Virus record (IMG/VR): IMGVR_UViG_2627853795_000005
Location: 1-32,635 of that record
Origin: a virus
Taxonomy: Duplodnaviria; Heunggongvirae; Uroviricota; Caudoviricetes
DNA length: 32,635 nt
Strand: one strand, 5' to 3'
Below the pieces are notes generated by a model, which saw only the letters and a list, made by a program, of their open reading frames with translations, did not search any database and had not been told where the DNA came from. The translations under genes were made by a program, and so were the position numbers. Below are positions 1-13,744 of this stretch, piece after piece; position 1 is the stretch's first letter; the number at the start of each line of letters is the position of its first letter.

Positions 1-990
1 TTATGTGGATGAAATGTGGATGCCTCCTTTTAATGGATTAAGTGAAATTGCATCCTGGAGGAAATCAGGAGCGAGGTGCGCATAGGTCATAGTTTGCTGA
101 ATCGTGGCGTGCCCCATAATTCGCTGGAGCGTAAGTATATTTCCTCCATTAATCATAAAGTGAGCTGCAAAGGTATGGCGTAGAACATGTACAGCCTGTC
201 CCTTTGGTAGGTCTGGCTTAACACTGCGAAGCACCTTGCGATATTCCTCATAATTGACGTCAAACAAAAGGCCGGATTTCTTTGTTTTGATCTCACTAAC
301 AACCTCATCAGAGACAGGAATAATTCGAACTTTTCCGTTTTTAGTTTTGTTAAACGTCACGCGATTATTGATGATGTGTTCCGCGCGCAGATTTTTCGCT
401 TCTCCCCATCTCGCCCCAGTACTGAGACAAAGTAGCGTAATCCGCCGGGCATCACCGCTTACTGCATCCAGCAATTTGGCGATTTCTTCCGTGGTGAGGT
501 ACGTCATTTCGGGTGATTTTCGTTTCAAAGAGGGGAGGGCGCGGAGTGGATTTTCTCCGTGAAATTCCCCGGCATTTGCCAGGAGTGTAAACATTCCTCC
601 GAGATCCGACTCATCACGCCGAACAGTAGATTCTTTTACTCCTAAGGATAAACGGGAGCTTCGATAAGCTGCCATGAAACGAGCATTAATCTGGCTAACC
701 CTTGGATCATTCATTTCTTTGATGATTTTTTTCAATCTGGTTAGAACGCCGTTAGCATATGGCTTATTGCGTCCACCCAATTCCCACCATAATGGAAGCA
801 GATCTGAGAGATGACGTTGCTCTGTTGGCTTTTCAAGCCATTCCTTATCGTGCATGTGGCTGAGAACATAGCGCTCAAAGGCCACTGCATCTGCCTTTTT
901 CTTAAAAATCCGCTGAATCCGACGTCCACTTCGGCCACGCGGTCTAACATCCACTTTATACCGTCCACCATCGAGTGCCTTAATTGCCAT
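1..990 (-). CDS. int: Tyrosine integrase (P2 Int-like)
   Basis: ORF 1..1023; N-terminus MAIKALDGGRYKVDVRP and C-terminal LRHTFAAHFMINGG...TLQRIMGH...YAH motifs match recalled P2 Int. Start set at internal ATG (988-990) because a GGAGGG RBS lies 8 nt upstream; the longer ORF start at 1023 has no RBS. Stop codon is at window position 1-3. Confidence 0.9.
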   Translation of the reverse strand: MAIKALDGGRYKVDVRPRGRSGRRIQRIFKKKADAVAFERYVLSHMHDKEWLEKPTEQRHLSDLLPLWWELGGRNKPYANGVLTRLKKIIKEMNDPRVSQINARFMAAYRSSRLSLGVKESTVRRDESDLGGMFTLLANAGEFHGENPLRALPSLKRKSPEMTYLTTEEIAKLLDAVSGDARRITLLCLSTGARWGEAKNLRAEHIINNRVTFNKTKNGKVRIIPVSDEVVSEIKTKKSGLLFDVNYEEYRKVLRSVKPDLPKGQAVHVLRHTFAAHFMINGGNILTLQRIMGHATIQQTMTYAHLAPDFLQDAISLNPLKGGIHISST

Positions 991-1056
991 TGGCAAGCCC
1001 TCCGGTGAAACGAGGAAAGACATTCCCAGTTTGTAAAACGTAAGAATAATAAAGGG

Positions 1057-5651: not shown

Positions 5652-8474
5652 ATGACGACAGAGTACATCAGGGACTGGCAACAACCGCGCCACGCAGTGG
5701 GGCGTGAAGGAACGGGGATCCCCGCACCTGAATCCGCGCTTTCCTCCTGGCTGGATGCCTACCAAGCAGAGAACGAGCGCCGACAGGAAAAGGCTGATGC
5801 GGCGTTCTCTGCCACGCCACTGGGCAACCTGATTAATAAAAGCCTGGACGCACAGGAAAAACAGGACAAAACCATCACGCTGGCAGGAGACGCCAGAAGA
5901 CAGGCACGCGGCACGGTGGATGAAGCCATGGCCTCGCTGCGCCTGCTGCCGTCCTATCTGCGCGATCCGCTTATTCGCCACCTCTCCTTCCTGCGCAAAA
6001 AACAGGAAGTCGATCGCCGGAAAGGCAAAAAGAGCTGGCAGGCGGAACGCTATGCACGCGGAACCCTGCGCAAAATATTCGAACGTCTGGATCGCACTGA
6101 CGGACACTGGCTGACACCGGGTTATCGCTCCCTTGCCGGACGCGAACGCCTGGACGATTTGCTTTACCTGCCGCAGCTCAACAAACACCAGATACAGACG
6201 CTGGCCACCATGACGGCGGCGATGTTCAGCAGCACCTTCGAAAAACTCTGCGATGGCTTTGGTGCGACTGATGGCGAGCTGACCATGGATGTAACGCTGA
6301 AGGCGTATCAGATGCTGGCCCGCATGGCGTTACACCTGCACGCCATGCCTCCGCATTATGACGCACTGACAACAGACAAAGACCGGAGGAACGAACCAGA
6401 CACGGAGCTGCTGCCGGGCGCAATCCTTCGCCTGACCTGTGCGGAATGGTGGAAACGCAAACTGTGGCTGTTACGTTGCGAGTGGAGAGAAGAACAACTC
6501 CGCGCCGCCTGTCTGGTTTCCAGAAAAACATCGCCCTATCTGAGCCAGGATGCGTTAAGCGAGTTTCGCGCACAGCGCGAGAAAACACGCGATTTCCTGA
6601 AAAGTTTCATGCTGGAAAACGAAGACGGGTTCACGATTGATCTTGAGACAGTGTATTACGCGGGAGTAAGTAACCCGGTTCACCGTAAGGCAGAAATGAT
6701 GGCCACCATGAAGGGGCTGGAACTTCTGGCCGAAGCCCGTGGCGACAGAGCGGTGTTTCTGACTGTCACCTGCCCGTCAAAATACCACGCAACAACGGAG
6801 AACGGTCATCCGAATCCCAAATGGAACGGGGCCACTATGCGCGACTCCAGCGATTACCTGGTTAACTCGTTTTTTGCGGCGGTCCGCAAGAAACTGAACC
6901 GCGACGGCCTGCGCTGGTATGGCATCCGCACGGTGGAGCCTCACCATGACGGCACCGTGCACTGGCATATGATGGTCTTTGCTCATCCGGAAGAAATCGA
7001 CACCATTGTGTCCCACACCCGCGATATTGCCATTCAGGAAGATCGTCACGAGCTGGGTGATGATATTACCCCACGCTTTAAGGCAGAGTACGTCGACGGC
7101 TCAAAAGGCACACCGACCAGCTACATCGCCACCTACATCGGGAAAAACCTGGACAGCCGTGCCGTGGATGGCATCGACCCGAAAACGGGCAAGCCACGCG
7201 TTGACCACGAAACAGGTAAATCAATGGCCGAGAGCGTGGAGCGTGCCATCGGCTGGGCGCGCCTTCACCGGGTCCGCCAGTTCCAGTTCTTTGGCATCCC
7301 CTCCCGTCAGGTGTGGCGTGAACTCCGCCGCCTTGCCAGCCAGATGGCACGCAACCCGGAAGGCCCGCAACGGCTGAAGGATGACGCAATGGATGCGGTA
7401 CTCGCTGCCGCTGATGCCGGATGTTTTGCCACCTACATTGAAAAACAGGGGGGCGTACTTGTTCCGCGCAAGGACTACCTGATTCGCACAGCCTACGACC
7501 TCGCAGATGAGCTGAACGATTACGGCGAGCAGAGTGTACAGATTTACGGGATCTGGTCGCCGCTCATTGGGGAGTCTTCCCGCGTATGCACGCATCCGGA
7601 TAACTGGAAGCTGGTAAGACGCAAACCGGAAGCGGAAGACAGCGCCCGCGAAAATGGTTTTGACCTTCAGGGCGGCCCTGCCGCCCCTTGGACTCGTGGC
7701 AATAACTGTCCCCGTGTACAGGAAACAGGCAACAACGGGACAGAACAGCCGGAAGAACGGCCAGCACCGTGGCCGCAGCTTCCTGACGGCGTTGAAGTAA
7801 ATGAATGGATGCGCTCACTGAAACGGCACGAACGCCGGGCGCTGATGCGTTCGCTTCGTGACAAACAGGCAAAAAACAGCAGCGATGAAATGCAGAACTG
7901 GACACAGAGCCGCAAACAGCAGCGGCCTTTGCCTGATAACCACGAGTTACTCGCTAAAGAATGGCGGGAGTCTGCTGAATCTCTCGGCCTGCATATCGGT
8001 GAACAACAGATGCAGCACCTGTTACGGGGCGGCAGTCTGTACGTTGACGGCAGCATCATTGCACCGCAGGGATTTGAAATTGTACGCAAACCGGATACCC
8101 GCCCGGACAGCCGAATCACGCAGCTCTGGCAGCGTCTGAGCCGTAATCATGGCGTAAGCAGCACGGAGATCCGCCATAACCCGGTCGCCAGCTATCTGGC
8201 ACAGCTGGGGGCATCAGACCCTGAAGCCGCCGCACGCCTGGCATCCACACTTCAGCAGGACCAGAACACCATGAAAACACCCGTTACCGTGCTTTCTGAC
8301 ATGCTGCGCGCCATCCGCGACGCAGAGCACGCACAGAGAATCAGTGAAACCACTGAACGCGCCAGCCGCAAAGCAGACCTGCTGCGGGGTGGCCTGACCA
8401 GTGGAAACAAAAAACAGACAGAAACGGGACTCACGAATCCCGTAAATGAGCAAAAAACGCGCAGCGATATATGA
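5652..8474 (+). CDS. A: Replication initiation endonuclease gpA (HUH rolling-circle initiator), with a long C-terminal extension
   Basis: 940-aa ORF; metal-binding motif HWHMMVFAH and paired catalytic tyrosines in YIATYIGK (Y-x3-Y), as in the P2 gpA family; synteny. Longer than my recollection of P2 gpA. Confidence 0.9.
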   Translation: MTTEYIRDWQQPRHAVGREGTGIPAPESALSSWLDAYQAENERRQEKADAAFSATPLGNLINKSLDAQEKQDKTITLAGDARRQARGTVDEAMASLRLLPSYLRDPLIRHLSFLRKKQEVDRRKGKKSWQAERYARGTLRKIFERLDRTDGHWLTPGYRSLAGRERLDDLLYLPQLNKHQIQTLATMTAAMFSSTFEKLCDGFGATDGELTMDVTLKAYQMLARMALHLHAMPPHYDALTTDKDRRNEPDTELLPGAILRLTCAEWWKRKLWLLRCEWREEQLRAACLVSRKTSPYLSQDALSEFRAQREKTRDFLKSFMLENEDGFTIDLETVYYAGVSNPVHRKAEMMATMKGLELLAEARGDRAVFLTVTCPSKYHATTENGHPNPKWNGATMRDSSDYLVNSFFAAVRKKLNRDGLRWYGIRTVEPHHDGTVHWHMMVFAHPEEIDTIVSHTRDIAIQEDRHELGDDITPRFKAEYVDGSKGTPTSYIATYIGKNLDSRAVDGIDPKTGKPRVDHETGKSMAESVERAIGWARLHRVRQFQFFGIPSRQVWRELRRLASQMARNPEGPQRLKDDAMDAVLAAADAGCFATYIEKQGGVLVPRKDYLIRTAYDLADELNDYGEQSVQIYGIWSPLIGESSRVCTHPDNWKLVRRKPEAEDSARENGFDLQGGPAAPWTRGNNCPRVQETGNNGTEQPEERPAPWPQLPDGVEVNEWMRSLKRHERRALMRSLRDKQAKNSSDEMQNWTQSRKQQRPLPDNHELLAKEWRESAESLGLHIGEQQMQHLLRGGSLYVDGSIIAPQGFEIVRKPDTRPDSRITQLWQRLSRNHGVSSTEIRHNPVASYLAQLGASDPEAAARLASTLQQDQNTMKTPVTVLSDMLRAIRDAEHAQRISETTERASRKADLLRGGLTSGNKKQTETGLTNPVNEQKTRSDI

Positions 8475-8550: not shown

Positions 8551-9510
8551 ATGAAAATTTACATCGACGACGGCTCCACCAACATCAAGCTGGCATGGAC
8601 TGAGAACGGCGAACGCCGCAACGCCATCAGCCCGAACAGCTTCAAGTCGGAATGGTCTGCGCCGTTCGGTGGCTCGCAGCCTGCTAACTACATGCTTGAT
8701 GGCGTGCGCTATGGTTTTGATCCGGTCAGCGATCGCTTTGTCCAGACGACCGACACGCAATACCAGTACAGCGATGTGAATGTCATTGCCATTCATCACG
8801 CGCTGGTCAAATCAGACATCACGCCACAGGAAGTGGATGTGGTTGTTACCCTGCCACTGAGCGAATATTTCGACACAAACGCACAGCCGGACATGGCCAA
8901 CATCAACCGCAAAAAAGCGAACGTCATGCGCCCGGTGGAGTACCAGAACGGCGAAGCATTCACTATCCGTAACGTACGGGTTATGCCTGAATCCATTCCG
9001 GCTGGCTTTAAAGCACTGGCTGACATGAGTCCGTTTGAATCCCTGCTGATTGTGGATTTGGGCGGAACCACGCTGGATGTGGCAAAGGTTCAGGGGCAAC
9101 TGGCAGGTATCAGCCAGGTGTTTTGCGATCCACACGTAGGCGTTTCTCTTATGGCCGATGCCGTACTGTCGGTGATGGCCACTAACGGTATGCGCACCAG
9201 TCACCACATCGCCAATACCATTATCGAACATCGCCATAATGAAGCCTGGCTGCGCCAGCACATCCACAATGACGCGCATTACGCCAGCCTGATGGCGGTT
9301 ATTCGTGAAAAGGAAGAAACACTGAAACAACGCGTGATCCGCGCGCTGGCGGTTTTTTCGGGTTACGGGCGGGTGATGGTTGTCGGTGGCGGGGCGGAGA
9401 TTGTGGCACCCGCTATCCGCGAAGCCTGCGGAGTTAATGCGACTTTCATCGCGGACGGGGTGCCACAGTTTGCTCTGGTTAATGGGCTGTACGCAATGGA
9501 CAAGGAGTAA
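8551..9510 (+). CDS. parM: ParM/StbA-like actin-type segregation ATPase
   Basis: N-terminal IDDGSTNIKL motif, ISPNSF, QYSDVNV..HHAL, MPESIPAG, DLGGTTLD, GGGAE and LVNG blocks co-linear with recalled plasmid R1 ParM; AAGGAAAA RBS. Confidence 0.8.
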   Translation: MKIYIDDGSTNIKLAWTENGERRNAISPNSFKSEWSAPFGGSQPANYMLDGVRYGFDPVSDRFVQTTDTQYQYSDVNVIAIHHALVKSDITPQEVDVVVTLPLSEYFDTNAQPDMANINRKKANVMRPVEYQNGEAFTIRNVRVMPESIPAGFKALADMSPFESLLIVDLGGTTLDVAKVQGQLAGISQVFCDPHVGVSLMADAVLSVMATNGMRTSHHIANTIIEHRHNEAWLRQHIHNDAHYASLMAVIREKEETLKQRVIRALAVFSGYGRVMVVGGGAEIVAPAIREACGVNATFIADGVPQFALVNGLYAMDKE

Positions 9511-9514
9511 ACCA

Positions 9515-9826
9515 ATGACGACACCAACCAGACGGATAAGTTTCTATCTGAAGCCCGCCGCCGTCAAGAACGAAGGAGAAGCATGCGCCTGGCTGGACAG
9601 CCTTACACCAGAAGCCCGCAAAAGCGGCCAACGCGTGGCTTTTCTGGCCGGGCTGGCACTTCTGAAGACGAATCCGGCAGAGGCTTACCGACTGGCCGCA
9701 TGGGCTGATGATGAGATGTTACCTGTGACACAAATCAGCTCAAAAAAGTTTGAAGCACAGTCTGCACCAGTGGCTAAGATAACCAGCCAGATGGCTGGGA
9801 ATATCCGGGCGTTATTTCCTGAGTAA
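9515..9826 (+). CDS. parR: ParR-like adaptor / DNA-binding protein
   Basis: Directly downstream of parM (5-bp gap) with AAGGAG RBS; N-terminus RRISFYLKP and AFLAGLAL, C-terminal IRALFPE resemble recalled R1 ParR blocks; size about 100 aa. Confidence 0.6.
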   Translation: MTTPTRRISFYLKPAAVKNEGEACAWLDSLTPEARKSGQRVAFLAGLALLKTNPAEAYRLAAWADDEMLPVTQISSKKFEAQSAPVAKITSQMAGNIRALFPE

Positions 9827-9946
9827 AAGCATCTGCGCGAAAAATGCTCACGTTTATAGAGACAGTATCATTCCATTTGGCACACTTACTTCAATAATCG
9901 ATCTGTTAAACAAATAGATTGTCTATTATCTATCGATTAAAACGAT

Positions 9947-10011
9947 CAATTATCTTGACAGTAATGTGCCTTTTTGTAAGATCGTTCGCATTGTGAGCGA
10001 CAAGATAATTG
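9947..10011 (+). promoter_or_regulatory. Candidate sigma70 promoter bracketed by a perfect 11-bp inverted repeat (putative operators)
   Basis: TTGACA at 9955-9960 with TAAGAT about 16 bp downstream; CAATTATCTTG at 9947-9957 and its reverse complement CAAGATAATTG at 10001-10011. Confidence 0.45.
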
Positions 10012-10088
10012 CGCGGCATTGTCCATGCAAAACGCCCCAATAGCAGCAACTATTGGGGCGTAAAACTCGGTCGGACTCACTTAACCTG

Positions 10089-10174
10089 ATATGCGTGCCT
10101 TCCGAAGTAAATCAAAATGTGCGTCGTATATTTTATTGCTTACACGCACCTCTGTAAAGGCACGCATATTTTTC
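10089..10174 (+). promoter_or_regulatory. Long leader stem-loop (13-bp perfect inverted repeat) followed by a T-run, immediately upstream of the RBS of ORF 10191: candidate attenuator or cis-regulatory RNA
   Basis: ATATGCGTGCCTT at 10089-10101 pairs with AAGGCACGCATAT at 10157-10169, then TTTT; nested 6-bp inverted repeat gtgcgt/acgcac inside. Confidence 0.4.
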
Positions 10175-10190
10175 CTATGAGGTAAATAAA

Positions 10191-10460
10191 GTGCGGGCTA
10201 AAACAGGTATTTGCAAGAACCCTCATCGTTATAATCCAACATTTCTGTCTCTCCCTGAATATCAAGGACAAGAAGGTCGGCACAAATGCGCTGCCTGTGC
10301 TTTTGAGCTAGGCATAAAAGATGCGCTTGAAGGACGCGCTATGGCTCAGAATGATTTAGTTTTAGCTAACATTCCGTTTAGCCAGGCTGGAACTGTAAGG
10401 CACAGAGATGCCTATGAAGCATATGTTCGTGGTTGGCGATTAATAAACAGCAACAATTGA
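10191..10460 (+). CDS. Small Cys/His-containing protein of unknown function (hotspot cargo)
   Basis: 89-aa ORF with GTG start and GAGGT RBS 8 nt upstream; motif CKNPHRY...RHKCAACAFELG suggests possible metal binding; a strong intrinsic terminator follows the stop. Confidence 0.55.
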   Translation: MRAKTGICKNPHRYNPTFLSLPEYQGQEGRHKCAACAFELGIKDALEGRAMAQNDLVLANIPFSQAGTVRHRDAYEAYVRGWRLINSNN

Positions 10461-10468
10461 TACTTTTG

Positions 10469-10492
10469 AAGCGCCGATAAGGCGCTTTTTTT
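10469..10492 (+). terminator. Rho-independent terminator after ORF 10191..10460
   Basis: aagcgcc-gataa-ggcgctt stem-loop followed by a T7 run. Confidence 0.8.
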
Positions 10493-10493
10493 G

Positions 10494-10660
10494 TTTGCAC
10501 GATAGTGCACAAGTTTGCACAATTTTTTTGAACGACTTTTTGTACTTCCGGCCCGCGTGGTGGCTGGATCCGTCAAGGATCCGTACGTGCACAAAAAAAC
10601 GCGTTTTTTCTGCGCGCAGGTGACGGGGGAACAGCCCGCGTTTCAGAGGGTAAATAGCAT
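10494..10660. other. Candidate cos region (terminase recognition and cohesive-end site)
   Basis: Non-coding stretch downstream of Q with TTTGCAC x2, GGATCCGT x2, GTGCAC x2 and a 16-bp perfect palindrome AAAAAACGCGTTTTTT (10594-10609); GGTGACGGGGGAACAGCCC (10619-10637) loosely resembles the recalled P2/186 cohesive end (GGCGAGGCGGGGAAAGCAC). Exact cut sites not determinable. Confidence 0.35.
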
Positions 10661-10896
10661 CCCCTGAACGATGTCGCAGCGACACAACAGAATGGCTGTA
10701 TTTCTCACGCTGAGCGTGAAAAAGACGTGAGGGCTTTTGATTTGATGGGGTGGAAAATAAGGCCGTCAAAATCGCACTGAGGCGGCGAGAACATGCAGTC
10801 AGCGCAGTGGGATTGCGTAAGAGTCTGACCATCGATGATGGCAATAAGCAGGAAAGCGTCGTGAAATTATCTGATTGATACAGGAGCTGGAGAGTC

Positions 10897-10919
10897 GGGG
10901 CATAAATTTTTTATGCCCC
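10897..10919 (-). terminator. Perfect 10-bp-stem palindrome downstream of Q (possible terminator of the P-Q operon or packaging-related element)
   Basis: ggggcataaa-ttt-tttatgcccc, 27 bp beyond the Q stop codon. Confidence 0.3.
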
Positions 10920-10946
10920 GGCGAAGCAGCAGACAAGCGAAGCGCG

Positions 10947-11993
10947 TCAGGATGTGGGCTGGGTGTCTAACAGTGCGTAAGGGTTAAAGCGGATCACCTC
11001 TTCGCCAAGCCAGTCATTGATGTGCTTCATGGCCTCCATGACGGGCATCAGCTCGTTAATTGCGTAAACCCGCGCGGCCTTCTCCACATCACCAAACGCA
11101 CTTTTTTCACCCGGCATCGCCCCCATCAGTTGCGGCGGAACGCGGTGCGCAGCCAGCACATCATCACGGGATGCCGCCTTAACATTCATGAACTCATCCT
11201 TTGCGGTGATCTGCTGGAACGGCAAAATTTGCACCCCCTCTTTGCCCCCGTTGGGCGCATGAATGAGCACGTTTTTAAACGCACCACCACCACGTGCCCC
11301 CTGTAGCGTTTCTTTCAGGGAGTCCATGCTTTCGCGGTTTACCTGCGCTGCACCGATGTAGATGATGCACCCGGCGTGGGATCCGTTGTCGTAATACAGT
11401 TTTCTGAACATGTCCGCCGAATGAGACAGGCTGGCCGAGAGTAATGCGCCAAGATATTCCGGCATGCCGTAGATTTCCTGGTTAATATCCGGATTCATCA
11501 GGTGGCACACTTTGCCAGGGCGAAACTGGAACGCGTCCTTGCCATCCTGCACATACCACCATGATTCAAGATCGCTTCCGCGTCGCATGTATTTCGCCAG
11601 GGCGTGCCGTAATTTAAGCGGTTCACCGAGCATATTGCTTCGAAGCTCAAGGAATGCGTTACCGAACACAAACCAGTCCAGCGCCAGCGCCGAGAAATCC
11701 TGCCGGGAAAGCAGCGGGTGCGGAATATAGCAACCGAGCAATACATTGCGCTTAAAGTAAAGCGCAGACTGATGCCAGGACGTTTGCCGGGCAGCTCTTG
11801 CCAGACCGTACCAGTCCACCGGGGTTTCATACCACCGCCCGTTATCAGCACAGTACATATTGTCCAGCAGGTCATGCCCGGTCAGGCGATAAGGACCATC
11901 AAATGTGAATGCACTGAGCGATGATTCTTTCCTGAGCGCATCAGCGAGATCAATGCGTGAACTCATGCGCACTTTTTTATTTTTTCTGCTCAT
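10947..11993 (-). CDS. Q: Portal protein gpQ
   Basis: 348-aa ORF, size and position (between cos and terminase, leftward) as for P2 gpQ; start overlaps the P stop. Confidence 0.85.
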   Translation of the reverse strand: MSRKNKKVRMSSRIDLADALRKESSLSAFTFDGPYRLTGHDLLDNMYCADNGRWYETPVDWYGLARAARQTSWHQSALYFKRNVLLGCYIPHPLLSRQDFSALALDWFVFGNAFLELRSNMLGEPLKLRHALAKYMRRGSDLESWWYVQDGKDAFQFRPGKVCHLMNPDINQEIYGMPEYLGALLSASLSHSADMFRKLYYDNGSHAGCIIYIGAAQVNRESMDSLKETLQGARGGGAFKNVLIHAPNGGKEGVQILPFQQITAKDEFMNVKAASRDDVLAAHRVPPQLMGAMPGEKSAFGDVEKAARVYAINELMPVMEAMKHINDWLGEEVIRFNPYALLDTQPTS

Positions 11994-13744
11994 CAGAACT
12001 CCATAACCGTGAAACGCTCGTTTTCTCCTTCGCCGCCAATCGGTTCGTTAATGACAGCAAGCATGGTCGCCCACGCAAGGTCGCCGTGGCTGATCCCCCT
12101 CGCGCGGTCCGTTTCGTAAGTGATAAAGCCGCCCGGTGTTTTCACCTTACGCACGGCGTTAAAGGCCGCGACCAGTTCGCGTTCGGCGCGATCGTATTCC
12201 CACCGCCCGGCACGCATTATTTGCAGCATTTTCAGTACCAGCGACCGTTTTGATGACAGCGTGAAGGTGTACGGAATAGCAGCAGGGAAAAACCGTTTCA
12301 CTATCTGATAAACAGCCTCCCCGTTCCCGCCCGTCACATCAATGCCGATGTGTTCCACGTTGTAGCGACACGTGAACTCTTCAATGACTCTGGCCTGTTC
12401 TTCAAACTCCAGCCCCTGAACGCGTCGCGTCTCCACCGTTCGAAAACGGCCACCAGGAACAGCCGGAGGAACCACCACGGACACCGCGCCGCTGTCGCCG
12501 TTGCCACTGCTGCCGTTTGCGTCATACCCAATCCATACCGGACGATTTCCCATCGGACGGGGAGCAAAAGGTTTCCAGTCTTTCCAGTCGTCGTATCCGT
12601 CAACGCCGCAGCCAATCAGGATATTCAGGTTAAATGCCGATTCCCCTTCGCGGACAAACTCACACATGTAGAGATTGAGGAACTCGTCTTCGGTGTTTTC
12701 ATCGCGGATTTCGTCAATATCGGTGTGTTTCCAGCCGTGATTAACCACATCTTCCAGCGTGACAATCTGCCGCCATGTCCGGTCAGGGCAGATAAGTCCG
12801 TTATGCAGCGTTTTCCAGTCCACAGAAAAACGCTGGCGTTTATGCGAGGCCTTTTTCTCGTTCCAGCGGTCGCCGTTCCAGTAGGCGTATGCCTCGTGCG
12901 TTTCGGTGGATGGCGTGGAGAAGTAGGTGCGCCGCAGTCCGCTGAGGGTTGCCATAGCGCCAGCCACCTTACGCAGTTCAGCAAAGCGACTGACCCAGAA
13001 AAATTCATCAAAATAAAAATTGCCCGTATAGGACTGTGCCGACGCAGCAGAAGTGCCGAGAAAATGCAGCTCTGCGCCGTTGGAGAGGATGATTTTATCG
13101 CCCCCTTTCAGCTCCACATCAACTTCAGCCGCGGCCTTCTGAATAATGCTTTTAAACTGGAACGCCTGACGACGCGACGCAGACAAAAAAATCTGGTTAC
13201 GCTGGTAAGGTTGCGCCACATCGTCACGCAGCGCCATCAGCAGAGCTTCCTGTGCAAAATACCAGGTCGCCCCAATCTGTCGGGATTTCAGGATCATCCT
13301 GTTACGTATCCCGGCTTCCCTGCAAAGGGTCAGGGAGTCAAACCAGCCCCGCTGATGCCACTCCAGCCTGCTGATGATTTTTTCCCGCAGTGCGGCAATC
13401 TGTTCCGGCGTGAAATGATTTTTGAGTTTTTTCGCCCGGCCTTTCTTTCCTGCGGCCATCACATCCGGCTGACCATCATGCAGCTTTTTAAGCTGCCGGG
13501 TCAGCAGGTCTATTTCCTTAAAGTCACCGCCTGTTTTATTCTGTTTTTCAGTAAGCTGGATGAGGCGCGCATCGATGGACTGCGTGACACGCTGCACGGG
13601 TGGCGTTTCATCCCACTGGTCGCGTTTTTTCCACGCATAAATCGTGTTCGGGTTTATTCCCATCAGACGTGATATTTCTGCGGGCGGATAACCCTGCCAG
13701 TAAAGTTGCCGCGCACGCTGGCGCACAAAAGCGTCCTGAATCAT
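11993..13744 (-). CDS. P: Terminase large (ATPase) subunit gpP
   Basis: 583-aa ORF; N-terminal ...QLYWQGYPPAEISRLMGINPNTIYAWKKRDQWDE matches recalled P2 gpP; divergent from O. Confidence 0.9.
   Translation of the reverse strand: MIQDAFVRQRARQLYWQGYPPAEISRLMGINPNTIYAWKKRDQWDETPPVQRVTQSIDARLIQLTEKQNKTGGDFKEIDLLTRQLKKLHDGQPDVMAAGKKGRAKKLKNHFTPEQIAALREKIISRLEWHQRGWFDSLTLCREAGIRNRMILKSRQIGATWYFAQEALLMALRDDVAQPYQRNQIFLSASRRQAFQFKSIIQKAAAEVDVELKGGDKIILSNGAELHFLGTSAASAQSYTGNFYFDEFFWVSRFAELRKVAGAMATLSGLRRTYFSTPSTETHEAYAYWNGDRWNEKKASHKRQRFSVDWKTLHNGLICPDRTWRQIVTLEDVVNHGWKHTDIDEIRDENTEDEFLNLYMCEFVREGESAFNLNILIGCGVDGYDDWKDWKPFAPRPMGNRPVWIGYDANGSSGNGDSGAVSVVVPPAVPGGRFRTVETRRVQGLEFEEQARVIEEFTCRYNVEHIGIDVTGGNGEAVYQIVKRFFPAAIPYTFTLSSKRSLVLKMLQIMRAGRWEYDRAERELVAAFNAVRKVKTPGGFITYETDRARGISHGDLAWATMLAVINEPIGGEGENERFTVMEF

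Follow-up and report, generated by a model that had tools for sequence, protein, structure and literature searches.

Antisense-controlled leaders and the ORF89 cassette

Control of translation by an antisense RNA in combination with a long-range leader structure is known from the Inc RNA/RNAI-repZ/repA systems of IncI-alpha/IncB and from hok/sok, while IS10/Tn10 control combines the Dam-sensitive promoter pIN with the antisense RNA RNA-OUT and fold-back inhibition. In the current study we describe a 666-nucleotide (nt) cassette (9827-10492) in a P2-like prophage of Escherichia coli (Peduoviridae, Xuanwuvirus-type; IMG/VR record IMGVR_UViG_2627853795_000005), whose entire analysed stretch of 32,635 nt is referred to as the window. 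The cassette comprises a promoter, a long leader, the gene of an 89-amino-acid (aa) protein designated ORF89 and a terminator. Its layout is closest to the antisense-controlled genes with long-range leaders, IS10 transposase control and the antisense regulators of phages, but it is a demonstrable member of none of them, and no prior description was found in the literature that was searched or in Rfam, PHROGs, NCBIfam or PADLOC. The reading that we favour, and consider rather probable, is that of a tightly gated, autonomous accessory (“moron”) cassette that encodes a DNA-modification-associated protein and is gated by an antisense RNA and a long-range helix of the messenger RNA (mRNA).

The cassette shares with IncI-alpha/IncB and hok/sok a convergent, constitutively promoted small antisense RNA, here predicted, that pairs with the leader upstream of the ribosome-binding site (RBS), as well as a predicted long-range helix that sets the availability of the RBS and a local hairpin that masks it. 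It differs from these systems in lacking a replication initiator, a membrane toxin and an evident leader peptide; a sequence or Rfam relationship is missing, and the mechanism of the cassette is one that we infer. The resemblance to IS10/Tn10 concerns the three suggested layers of control, i.e., a GATC site at the sense promoter, a cis-antisense RNA directed against the 5' end of the mRNA and a masked translation initiation region. However, the antisense RNA of the cassette leaves the start codon uncovered, its conserved GATC is located upstream of the -35 box and not in the -10 box, and its product is not a transposase and is not accompanied by terminal repeats. A small antisense RNA that gates a conditionally expressed phage gene is also the common feature of P22 sar/ant, P22 sas/sieB (PMC7067206, PMC2629481), lambda OOP/cII and P1 c4/ant, whose target proteins and genomic positions differ from those of the cassette. 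Rfam matches were weak, below threshold and confined to the terminator hairpin, with the sar model scoring 22 bits against its gathering score of 43 bits.

A predicted, conserved antisense RNA gene in the leader

Our comparison of the leader is based on 25 distinct sequences, namely, the window and 24 diverged copies, which were retrieved from 80 viral-contig loci and the loci L002, L004 and L008 and represent three types, i.e., a P2-like one, a lambdoid one next to the lysis genes and a P22-like one located downstream of cI. A promoter scan located a -35 box (TTTACA, 10158-10153) and a -10 box (TAAAAT, 10135-10130) with a 17-nt spacer on the minus strand of the window, and a minus-strand promoter of the type TTTAC(A/T)-N17-TAnnnT is present at the same place in all 25 leader variants. 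The variants exhibit 11 different -10 hexamers with invariant positions T1, A2 and T6, and the spacing is fixed at 17 nt with spacer sequences that are unrelated to each other. This promoter, which had been missed in the initial annotation of the window, faces a GC-rich hairpin (hairpin 1, 10032-10061) with a 12-bp stem and a 6-nt loop.

Hairpin 1 is found at the same position in all 25 variants and its conservation is accompanied by covariation, with at least 12 different stem sequences. The stem is followed by A's on the plus strand and by a U-rich tail on the minus strand, which read AAAAC and GGGGCGUUUUGC, respectively, in the window. Because of G-U pairs the hairpin is stabler on the minus strand, as observed in 18 of the 25 variants (Wilcoxon p = 0.017, a test that ignores relatedness). 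An alignment of all three leader types with MAFFT/RNAalifold misplaced the inner pairs, and the hairpins were compared sequence by sequence instead. A leader hairpin had initially been annotated at 10033-10058; it is real and its arms are slightly wider (10032-10043 and 10050-10061), but the U's on the minus strand only and the higher stability of this strand are not those of a plus-strand leader element. Hairpin 1 is, as judged from these sequence properties, the predicted terminator of an antisense RNA and functional on the minus strand only.

The conserved minus-strand promoter and hairpin 1 therefore define a putative cis-antisense RNA of about 97 nt with a predicted start at 10122-10124 and a 3' end at 10026-10028 (minus strand), whose sequence is complementary to the leader of the mRNA. 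The RNA is predicted to form a stem-loop at its 5' end and then the terminator hairpin, its fold is stabler than that of shuffled sequences (z = -3.8 in the window), and its predicted size ranges across the variants from about 65 to 100 nt. The RNA family is absent from Rfam. Neither the leader nor the antisense RNA of the window matched any Rfam family at gathering score, with sub-threshold matches of at most 22 bits, and the leaders of nine related loci had no match. A known riboswitch or attenuator was accordingly rejected, as no curated covariance model reached its gathering score. A retron-like non-coding RNA, which had been considered with regard to the flanking repeats, was rejected because a reverse transcriptase is not present.

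A predicted long-range helix and the masking of the ribosome-binding site

The fold of the leader RNA is likewise stabler than expected from shuffled sequences (z = -3.1), and an inverted-repeat search revealed two perfect 13-bp arms on the plus strand (10089-10101 and 10157-10169) that can form a long-range mRNA helix. The left arm is located inside the antisense target. The right arm overlaps the antisense -35 box; it begins at the TGTAAAG motif, which is the antisense -35 read from the opposite strand, and extends into the segment that directly precedes the RBS, abutting a U-run (10170-10174) and the RBS with the Shine-Dalgarno (SD) sequence GAGGT (10179-10183) and the GTG start codon (10191-10193). 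Although the sequences differ, each of the 25 variants has an equivalent helix (mean -24 kcal/mol, z about -4 versus shuffled partners). The helix is stabler on the plus strand in 20 of them (p = 0.002), RNAalifold predicts it independently for twelve P22-type leaders, and the arms of the diverged P2-type relative L002 are located at the same place (CGAGGUGUCAUCU/AGAUGAACACCUCA).

The second structural element is a local hairpin that masks the SD sequence, and often the start codon too, in 24 of the 25 variants, with the U-run forming the hairpin loop. It is marked by compensatory changes on both sides of the stem (GC to AU and CG to UA, four sequences each). The window represents the exception, because its local SD hairpin is weak (-3.8 kcal/mol) and occurs alongside a long-range helix of unusual strength. 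Two pairing partners at comparable energies are available to the anti-SD segment, i.e., the SD sequence and the antisense-target arm (-8.7 and -20.8 kcal/mol in the window), and these two pairings are mutually exclusive in the P2-type variants. One example is L002, in which the partner of ACCUCA is either UGAGGU in the RBS or GAGGUGU further upstream. In the P22-type group a freed CAUUC segment is able to extend the pairing over the AUG. Masking of the antisense target in a partition-function model reduced the accessibility of the SD sequence in 13 of the 25 variants and increased it in a single one. The post-initiation control that had been proposed for the gene is supported by computation, and several layers are predicted for it.

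In the window, the SD sequence of ORF89 is overlapped by a mini-ORF of two codons (ATG AGG TAA, 10177-10185), which the L002-type relatives lack.

The sense promoter and its GATC sites

The predicted sigma-70 promoter of the ORF89 mRNA, which had already been noticed at 9955, was recovered by the promoter scan with a -35 box TTGACA (9955-9960), a 16-nt spacer and a -10 box TAAGAT (9977-9982) on the plus strand. It matches the consensus at 10 of 12 positions, and the predicted transcription start at about 9989 results in an mRNA leader of about 200 nt. An equivalent promoter (TTGnnn-N16-18-TAnnnT) is present in 24 of the 25 leader variants.

The three GATC sites that had been reported in its vicinity are located at 9900, 9944 and 9980, which corresponds to three sites in 81 nt compared with 2.4 per kb in the whole window; the leader variants contain three to five GATC sites per 330 nt. 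A GATC is present 5-7 nt upstream of the -35 box in 24 of the 25 variants (window: 9944, 7 nt upstream), and a second one (9980-9983) overlaps the 3' end of the -10 box in the window and likewise in its nearest relatives (TAAGATCG / TAGGATCG). GATC sites in or next to the promoter are a feature of Dam-controlled promoters, for which pIN of IS10 and other Dam-sensitive promoters are precedents, and their conservation at the sense promoter suggests a modulation that would depend on Dam or SeqA.

The promoter is preceded by a dyad-rich block (9885-9950, strand unassigned) that carries the GATC sites at 9900 and 9944. Hardly any changes in this block distinguish the window from the ~75%-identical relatives L002, L053 and L057, whereas the flanking leader diverges. 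Its roughly 65 bp contain nested dyads (ATCTGTT-A-AACAAAT and ATAGAT-N8-ATCTAT) and repeated ATCGAT/CGATC motifs. The lambdoid and P22-type cassettes lack this block, which may represent a factor-binding or Dam/SeqA site for the promoter, or alternatively a ParR centromere, i.e., a parC located downstream of parR.

A perfect 11-nt inverted repeat with arms at 9947-9957 and 10001-10011 brackets the promoter of the window. Its interpretation as an operator lacks comparative support, because it is not kept in the closest diverged relatives L002, L053 and L057, and the repeat is best regarded as variant-specific or due to chance (about 2% per region). The initial annotation had combined this operator with an attenuator, formed by the 13-bp stem and the T-run, into a repressor-operator model of an antirepressor-like gene without an antisense RNA. 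The repeats themselves are real and statistically unusual: the 32.6-kb window contains just seven different perfect inverted repeats with arms of 11 nt or more (gap of at most 80 nt), and three of these are found within the 666-nt stretch, which represents 2% of the sequence, and dinucleotide-preserving shuffles of the stretch contained at least one such repeat in 1.8% of the trials and a 13-mer in 0.2%. Moreover, five T's directly follow the 13-bp stem in the window; the T-run is located about 5 nt before the SD sequence and 17 nt before the start codon, and not 17 nt before the RBS as originally described. However, the 13-bp stem encloses 55 nt, it is replaced elsewhere by helices with the anti-SD segment as 3' arm while the U-run serves as the loop of the SD hairpin, and the perfectly conserved minus-strand promoter would be left unexplained. 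The 13-bp repeat is thus better understood as the arm-pair of a conserved long-range helix beside an anti-SD element than as a classical attenuator. The product shows no similarity to Ant/Tum or any Pfam family, and taken together with the non-conserved 11-bp repeat we regard the operator-attenuator model as very improbable.

The ORF89 protein family

ORF89 (10191-10460, plus strand) had been annotated as an 89-aa open reading frame (ORF) with a GTG start. It is a real gene, since the conservation of the protein outlasts the divergence of the DNA. An unannotated ORF of L002 (4281-4559) with an ATG start and an unchanged RBS encodes a protein with 57% identity, and further homologues with 50-63% identity are found in lambdoid phages of Providencia, P22-like phages of Salmonella and many IMG/VR contigs. 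The gene is followed by an intrinsic terminator on the plus strand (10468-10488 plus T-run, to 10496), which was confirmed by a terminator scan and has equivalents 3' of the gene in L004, L008 and L002. All sequence features listed in the initial annotation thus exist at, or within a few bases of, their original positions. PGAP leaves ORF89 unannotated in many E. coli genomes, as well as its homologues in L002 and L003.

Profile searches, which had been proposed as a check, resulted in a single library match, i.e., phrog_3941 of “unknown function” (E = 9.1e-49; ORF89 residues 4-89 versus profile positions 1-86 of 86), and Providencia and Bacteroidales homologues also match this profile. ORF89 accordingly belongs to phrog_3941 over its full length, but the family offers only a label and no functional annotation. 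The family is represented by 173 representatives at the 50% identity level in an exhaustive HMMER scan and by 1,536 clusters at 90% identity in a profile search. None of the listed homologues has a name beyond “hypothetical protein” or a Pfam domain, ORF89 itself matches neither Pfam nor NCBIfam, and PADLOC returned no defence-system match for ORF89 or its close homologues.

The invariant residues C8, H12, R30, H31, C33, C36, S64, Q65, R70, H71 and G81 form a pattern that fits a putative CHCC zinc site and a duplicated “Q-G-x-x-x-R-H-K ... A-Y-x-x-G-Y” unit, which corresponds to two beta-beta-alpha repeats (“QGxxGRHKCAxCAYExGY” and “SQAGTVRHKxxxxAYxxGY”). A structure prediction, which had likewise been suggested, yielded a confident model: AlphaFold2 with an alignment of 66 sequences predicts two strand-strand-helix units with a predicted local distance difference test (pLDDT) score of 88.6 and a predicted template modelling (pTM) score of 0.82, whereas the pLDDT obtained from the single sequence is only 43. 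No fold or sequence match was found in PDB or BFVD. An antirepressor of the Ant/Tum type, which had been one of the functions originally envisaged, was rejected, as neither Pfam, NCBIfam and the functional PHROGs nor the structures of BFVD and PDB provide any similarity to a known antirepressor family. ORF89 most likely represents a zinc-dependent factor that binds DNA or is associated with DNA modification, while our confidence in any more specific function is low.

The architecture of the cassette also allows for a type I toxin-antitoxin or abortive-infection module. In this scenario ORF89 would act as an effector that arrests growth, probably by targeting DNA, and would be held in check by the antisense RNA as a labile antitoxin; the toxin would be set free when antisense transcription ceases, i.e., under phage attack or after loss of the prophage. 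The long folded leader, the masked SD sequence and a well-promoted convergent antisense RNA that acts upstream of the SD sequence are in agreement with this scenario, and an antisense RNA with its own promoter and terminator, as typical of type I systems, is computationally predicted here. The cassette is furthermore located in prophage defence hotspots, namely, gpA-gpQ (PMC9122126) and the rexAB-like slot after cI (PMC2629481). The hydrophilic 89-aa protein with its predicted soluble alpha/beta fold and zinc-binding pattern is not one of the small hydrophobic toxins, i.e., short membrane peptides, of type I systems, although non-membrane toxins such as SymE and RalR exist. The missing PADLOC match is a further point against a toxin. 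Solitary plasmid homologues without the antisense leader, and homologues that are embedded in or fused to larger defence or modification proteins (see below), are difficult to reconcile with general toxicity, and we therefore consider the toxin scenario rather unlikely.

Genomic company of the ORF89 homologues

The favoured reading as a DNA-modification-associated protein is based on the genomic neighbourhoods of the homologues. In a small sample of 13 non-enterobacterial loci, which is skewed to Bacteroidota metagenome contigs, a DNA methyltransferase is located within a few genes of the homologue in 11 cases; ten of these contain a D12 (Dam-class) enzyme and six also a DpnII endonuclease. 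Three gene orders recur: (i) dpnM, DpnII, the homologue (either by itself or forming the N-terminal part of a 279-aa protein) and an N6_N4 methylase; (ii) the homologue, DUF3644, a gene for about 103 aa, a D12 methylase and a DUF6996/6997/7226 protein; and (iii) HTH_3 and the homologue between a DpnII/D12 pair and a second methylase. DUF3644 is a HEPN domain (PMC3710099). In multi-domain members of the family the ORF89 domain is fused to DndB/DpdB, WYL, HNH_2 or NOV_C. From this gene company and the fusions we infer that the ORF89 domain may be a nucleic-acid-directed module of DNA-modification and restriction systems. The copy of the window itself has neither a methylase nor an endonuclease as neighbour, i.e., the location in a restriction-modification operon applies to its homologues.

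The 279-aa proteins of L005 (3007-3846) and L006 (1930-2769) are encoded in DpnII operons and carry the ORF89 domain at the N-terminus; their C-terminal domain of about 190 aa has no sequence match in Pfam, NCBIfam, PADLOC or PDB. A PDB sequence search with the neighbouring DUF6996/6997/7226 protein provided nothing informative.

In the DpnII-type loci L109 (1431-1952) and L110 (2210-2731), a 70-aa HTH_3 gene directly precedes the homologue on the same strand. The presence of this Xre-type gene indicates that tight control of the ORF89-family protein may be a general requirement, and its antitoxin- or controller-like character would also be compatible with the toxin scenario. The homologues occupy positions comparable to those of the C proteins, which are small proteins of restriction-modification operons. 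However, C proteins have an Xre-type helix-turn-helix (HTH), whereas ORF89 has a different predicted fold, with no match to an HTH family in Pfam or NCBIfam and no fold match in PDB, and the HTH_3 gene in L109 and L110 is a separate one beside the homologue.

The repeated and strong linkage of the homologues to D12 methylases and DpnII endonucleases would also fit an epigenetic or anti-restriction accessory, in which case ORF89 would cooperate with a Dam-family methyltransferase or GATC-specific endonuclease, or would have such an enzyme as its target. It could then, for example, boost or block the GATC methylation or restriction of phage DNA, and the GATC of its promoter would serve as the methylation feedback sensor. 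A D12-class Dam is supplied by the hosts E. coli, Salmonella and Providencia, no phage dam is encoded in the early region of the window, and the GATC at the sense promoter is conserved. The linkage is, however, purely associative, and the fusions with DndB/DpdB, WYL and HNH domains show that the ORF89 domain is not confined to m6A systems. Moreover, Dam-methylated phage DNA already resists DpnII-type enzymes. GATC is absent upstream of eight restriction-modification-linked homologues, and an autoregulation by binding of the protein to the GATC of its own promoter is therefore unsupported. On balance, we consider an epigenetic accessory function of this kind distinctly unlikely.

The enterobacterial plasmid homologues with 39-47% identity are solitary genes. 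The antisense leader is missing in these more distant plasmid homologues, which shows that the regulatory shell is specific for a subfamily and says little about the function of the protein.

Distribution and position of the cassette

The unit of promoter, leader, ORF and terminator recurs at different map positions in three unrelated temperate-phage backbones, which bears out the initial proposal of a self-contained cassette with its own promoter, a long structured leader, the gene of a small Cys/His protein and a terminator. In P2-like phages the unit follows parMR, in lambdoid phages of Providencia it is flanked by the lysis genes and Q, and in P22-like phages of Salmonella it is found just downstream of cI. 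The latter position is rexAB-like (PMC2629481). Near-identical copies of the 666 nt are present in 166 of 5,426 complete E. coli genomes, where they are chromosomal every time, and also in three deposited phage genomes; E. coli 300709 and O157:H7 ECP19-2498 are examples of strains whose copy is 100% identical. Seven E. coli genomes contain a ~75%-identical copy, whose identity is confined to the promoter-proximal part.

In the window, the integrase gene (1-1023, minus strand) is followed by Cox and the early genes, the replication gene A (gpA, 5652-8474, identified by its Phage_GPA match) and the ParM/ParR partition pair (8551-9510 and ~9515-9826). The cassette is located between parMR and a cos-proximal spacer, and the genes for the portal (gpQ, 10947-11993) and the terminase (11993-13744) follow on the minus strand. 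Its position between the replication gene A and the portal gene Q next to cos thus corresponds to the gpA-gpQ region, which in P2-like phages is known as a hotspot for cargo and defence genes (PMC9122126).

The partition genes (8551-9826) are complete, with StbA_N and the ParM C-terminal domain in ParM (E = 1e-80) and Plasmid_stab_B in ParR/StbB, and this actin-type pair thus occupies the gpA-gpQ hotspot although the P2-like prophage is integrated into the chromosome. The pair is kept in diverged relatives, with an internal stop in parM of L003. The gap of 76 nt that precedes parM shows no iteron-like parC.

Two copies of the cassette appear to be defective: that of E. coli CH4793 (NZ_CM166350.1) is interrupted by an IS1X4 insertion, and the ORF of phage 503458 (NC_049341.1) aligns as two pieces with a length difference of 5-6 nt, which suggests a frameshift. 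The ORF89 gene is thus dispensable in at least some lysogens. The diverged P2-type relatives L002 (4626-4913) and L003 (4614-4901) contain an additional 95-aa hypothetical gene after the cassette, and an Ogr/Delta-like zinc-finger gene is present before the portal gene in L002 (5226-5483).

The cos-proximal spacer of the window (10552-10620) contains the direct repeat GGATCCGT (10566, 10577), which adds two further GATC sites, the palindrome AAAAAACGCGTTTTTT (10594-10609) and repeated GTTTGCAC and GTGCACAA motifs (10493-10523, 10505 and 10587). Just before the portal gene, an 11-nt inverted repeat (10896, 10910) falls within a sub-threshold Rfam match to the gyrA leader RNA (10888-10941; 22 bits versus a gathering score of 45 bits), which is probably only a hairpin or terminator. 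A match above threshold to sRNA-Xcc1 (RF02221, 59.9 bits versus 53) in L086 (2804-2893, minus strand) is located about 1.1 kb downstream of the cassette of this locus and unrelated to the leader.

Proposed regulation and significance

The architecture that we assign to the cassette with high confidence has five parts, namely, a putative GATC-marked sigma-70 promoter, a leader of about 200 nt, an embedded convergent antisense gene, an RBS whose availability would depend on the long-range helix, and the gene of a presumed zinc protein with its terminator. The antisense RNA likely represses translation by refolding and/or cleavage of the mRNA; for the detailed mechanism of repression our confidence is moderate. 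Transcribed from its near-consensus promoter, the antisense RNA would pair with about 97 nt of the leader and thereby take away the left arm of the long-range helix, so that the adjacent anti-SD or anti-start segment would be freed to mask the RBS. As the complementarity of the antisense RNA covers the whole upstream arm but not the anti-SD segment, its binding should release the latter to close the RBS. Long sense/antisense duplexes are substrates of RNase III, and the duplex of 70-100 bp would probably also expose the mRNA to this enzyme. ORF89 would consequently be produced only if transcription of the mRNA exceeds the supply of antisense RNA. The Dam methylation state at the sense promoter may help to set this balance, for example on hemi- or unmethylated DNA that is newly replicated or newly injected.

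Several observations weigh against this interpretation. The long-range helix and the SD hairpin do not exclude each other in the P22-type group, and the switch is clear only in the P2-type leaders. Masking of the antisense target lowers the mean accessibility of the SD sequence from 0.39 to 0.29, which is a modest effect. A clean ON/OFF RNA switch was rejected for these two reasons. The U-tract on the minus strand is broken in many variants (UUCCCUUAU), and the antisense promoter of the window lacks the GATC that is present in most other variants. The existence of the antisense RNA, the positions of the two transcription starts and the dependence on Dam are all predicted. The size and skew of the neighbourhood sample, the missing GATC upstream of the restriction-modification-linked homologues and the plasmid homologues without antisense leader have to be added to this list.

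A more far-reaching proposal is that the ORF89 family represents a new class of zinc-finger readers or modulators of adenine-methylation systems, one of which would have been captured by temperate enterobacterial phages and wired to a GATC-sensing promoter and an antisense RNA. Its partners in the restriction-modification loci would be Dam-class methylases or DpnII-type nucleases, and in the phages it would be part of a feedback circuit that responds to the methylation state and targets either the Dam enzyme of the host or the GATC sites in phage DNA or invading DNA. Such a circuit might stimulate protective methylation in a Ral-like manner, block restriction or elicit an abortive response to unmethylated DNA. 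We consider this proposal speculative and improbable in its specific form.

The favoured reading of a tightly gated accessory cassette has several implications. The cassette occupies both of the classic slots for defence and conversion genes expressed in the lysogen, i.e., gpA-gpQ of P2-like phages and the site downstream of cI in P22-like phages, and it would therefore be a concrete candidate for an unrecognised function in defence, anti-defence or epigenetics. For genome annotation, the failure of PGAP to call the gene in many E. coli strains calls for caution. If the interpretation holds true, a new prophage cis-antisense RNA would join the small set of antisense regulators of phages, and the control of the cassette would comprise three conserved layers with the GATC-marked promoter, the antisense RNA and the masked RBS. 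A hitherto unnamed protein family of about 1,500 clusters at 90% identity would thereby gain a context in DNA modification and restriction as well as a tractable representative in E. coli.

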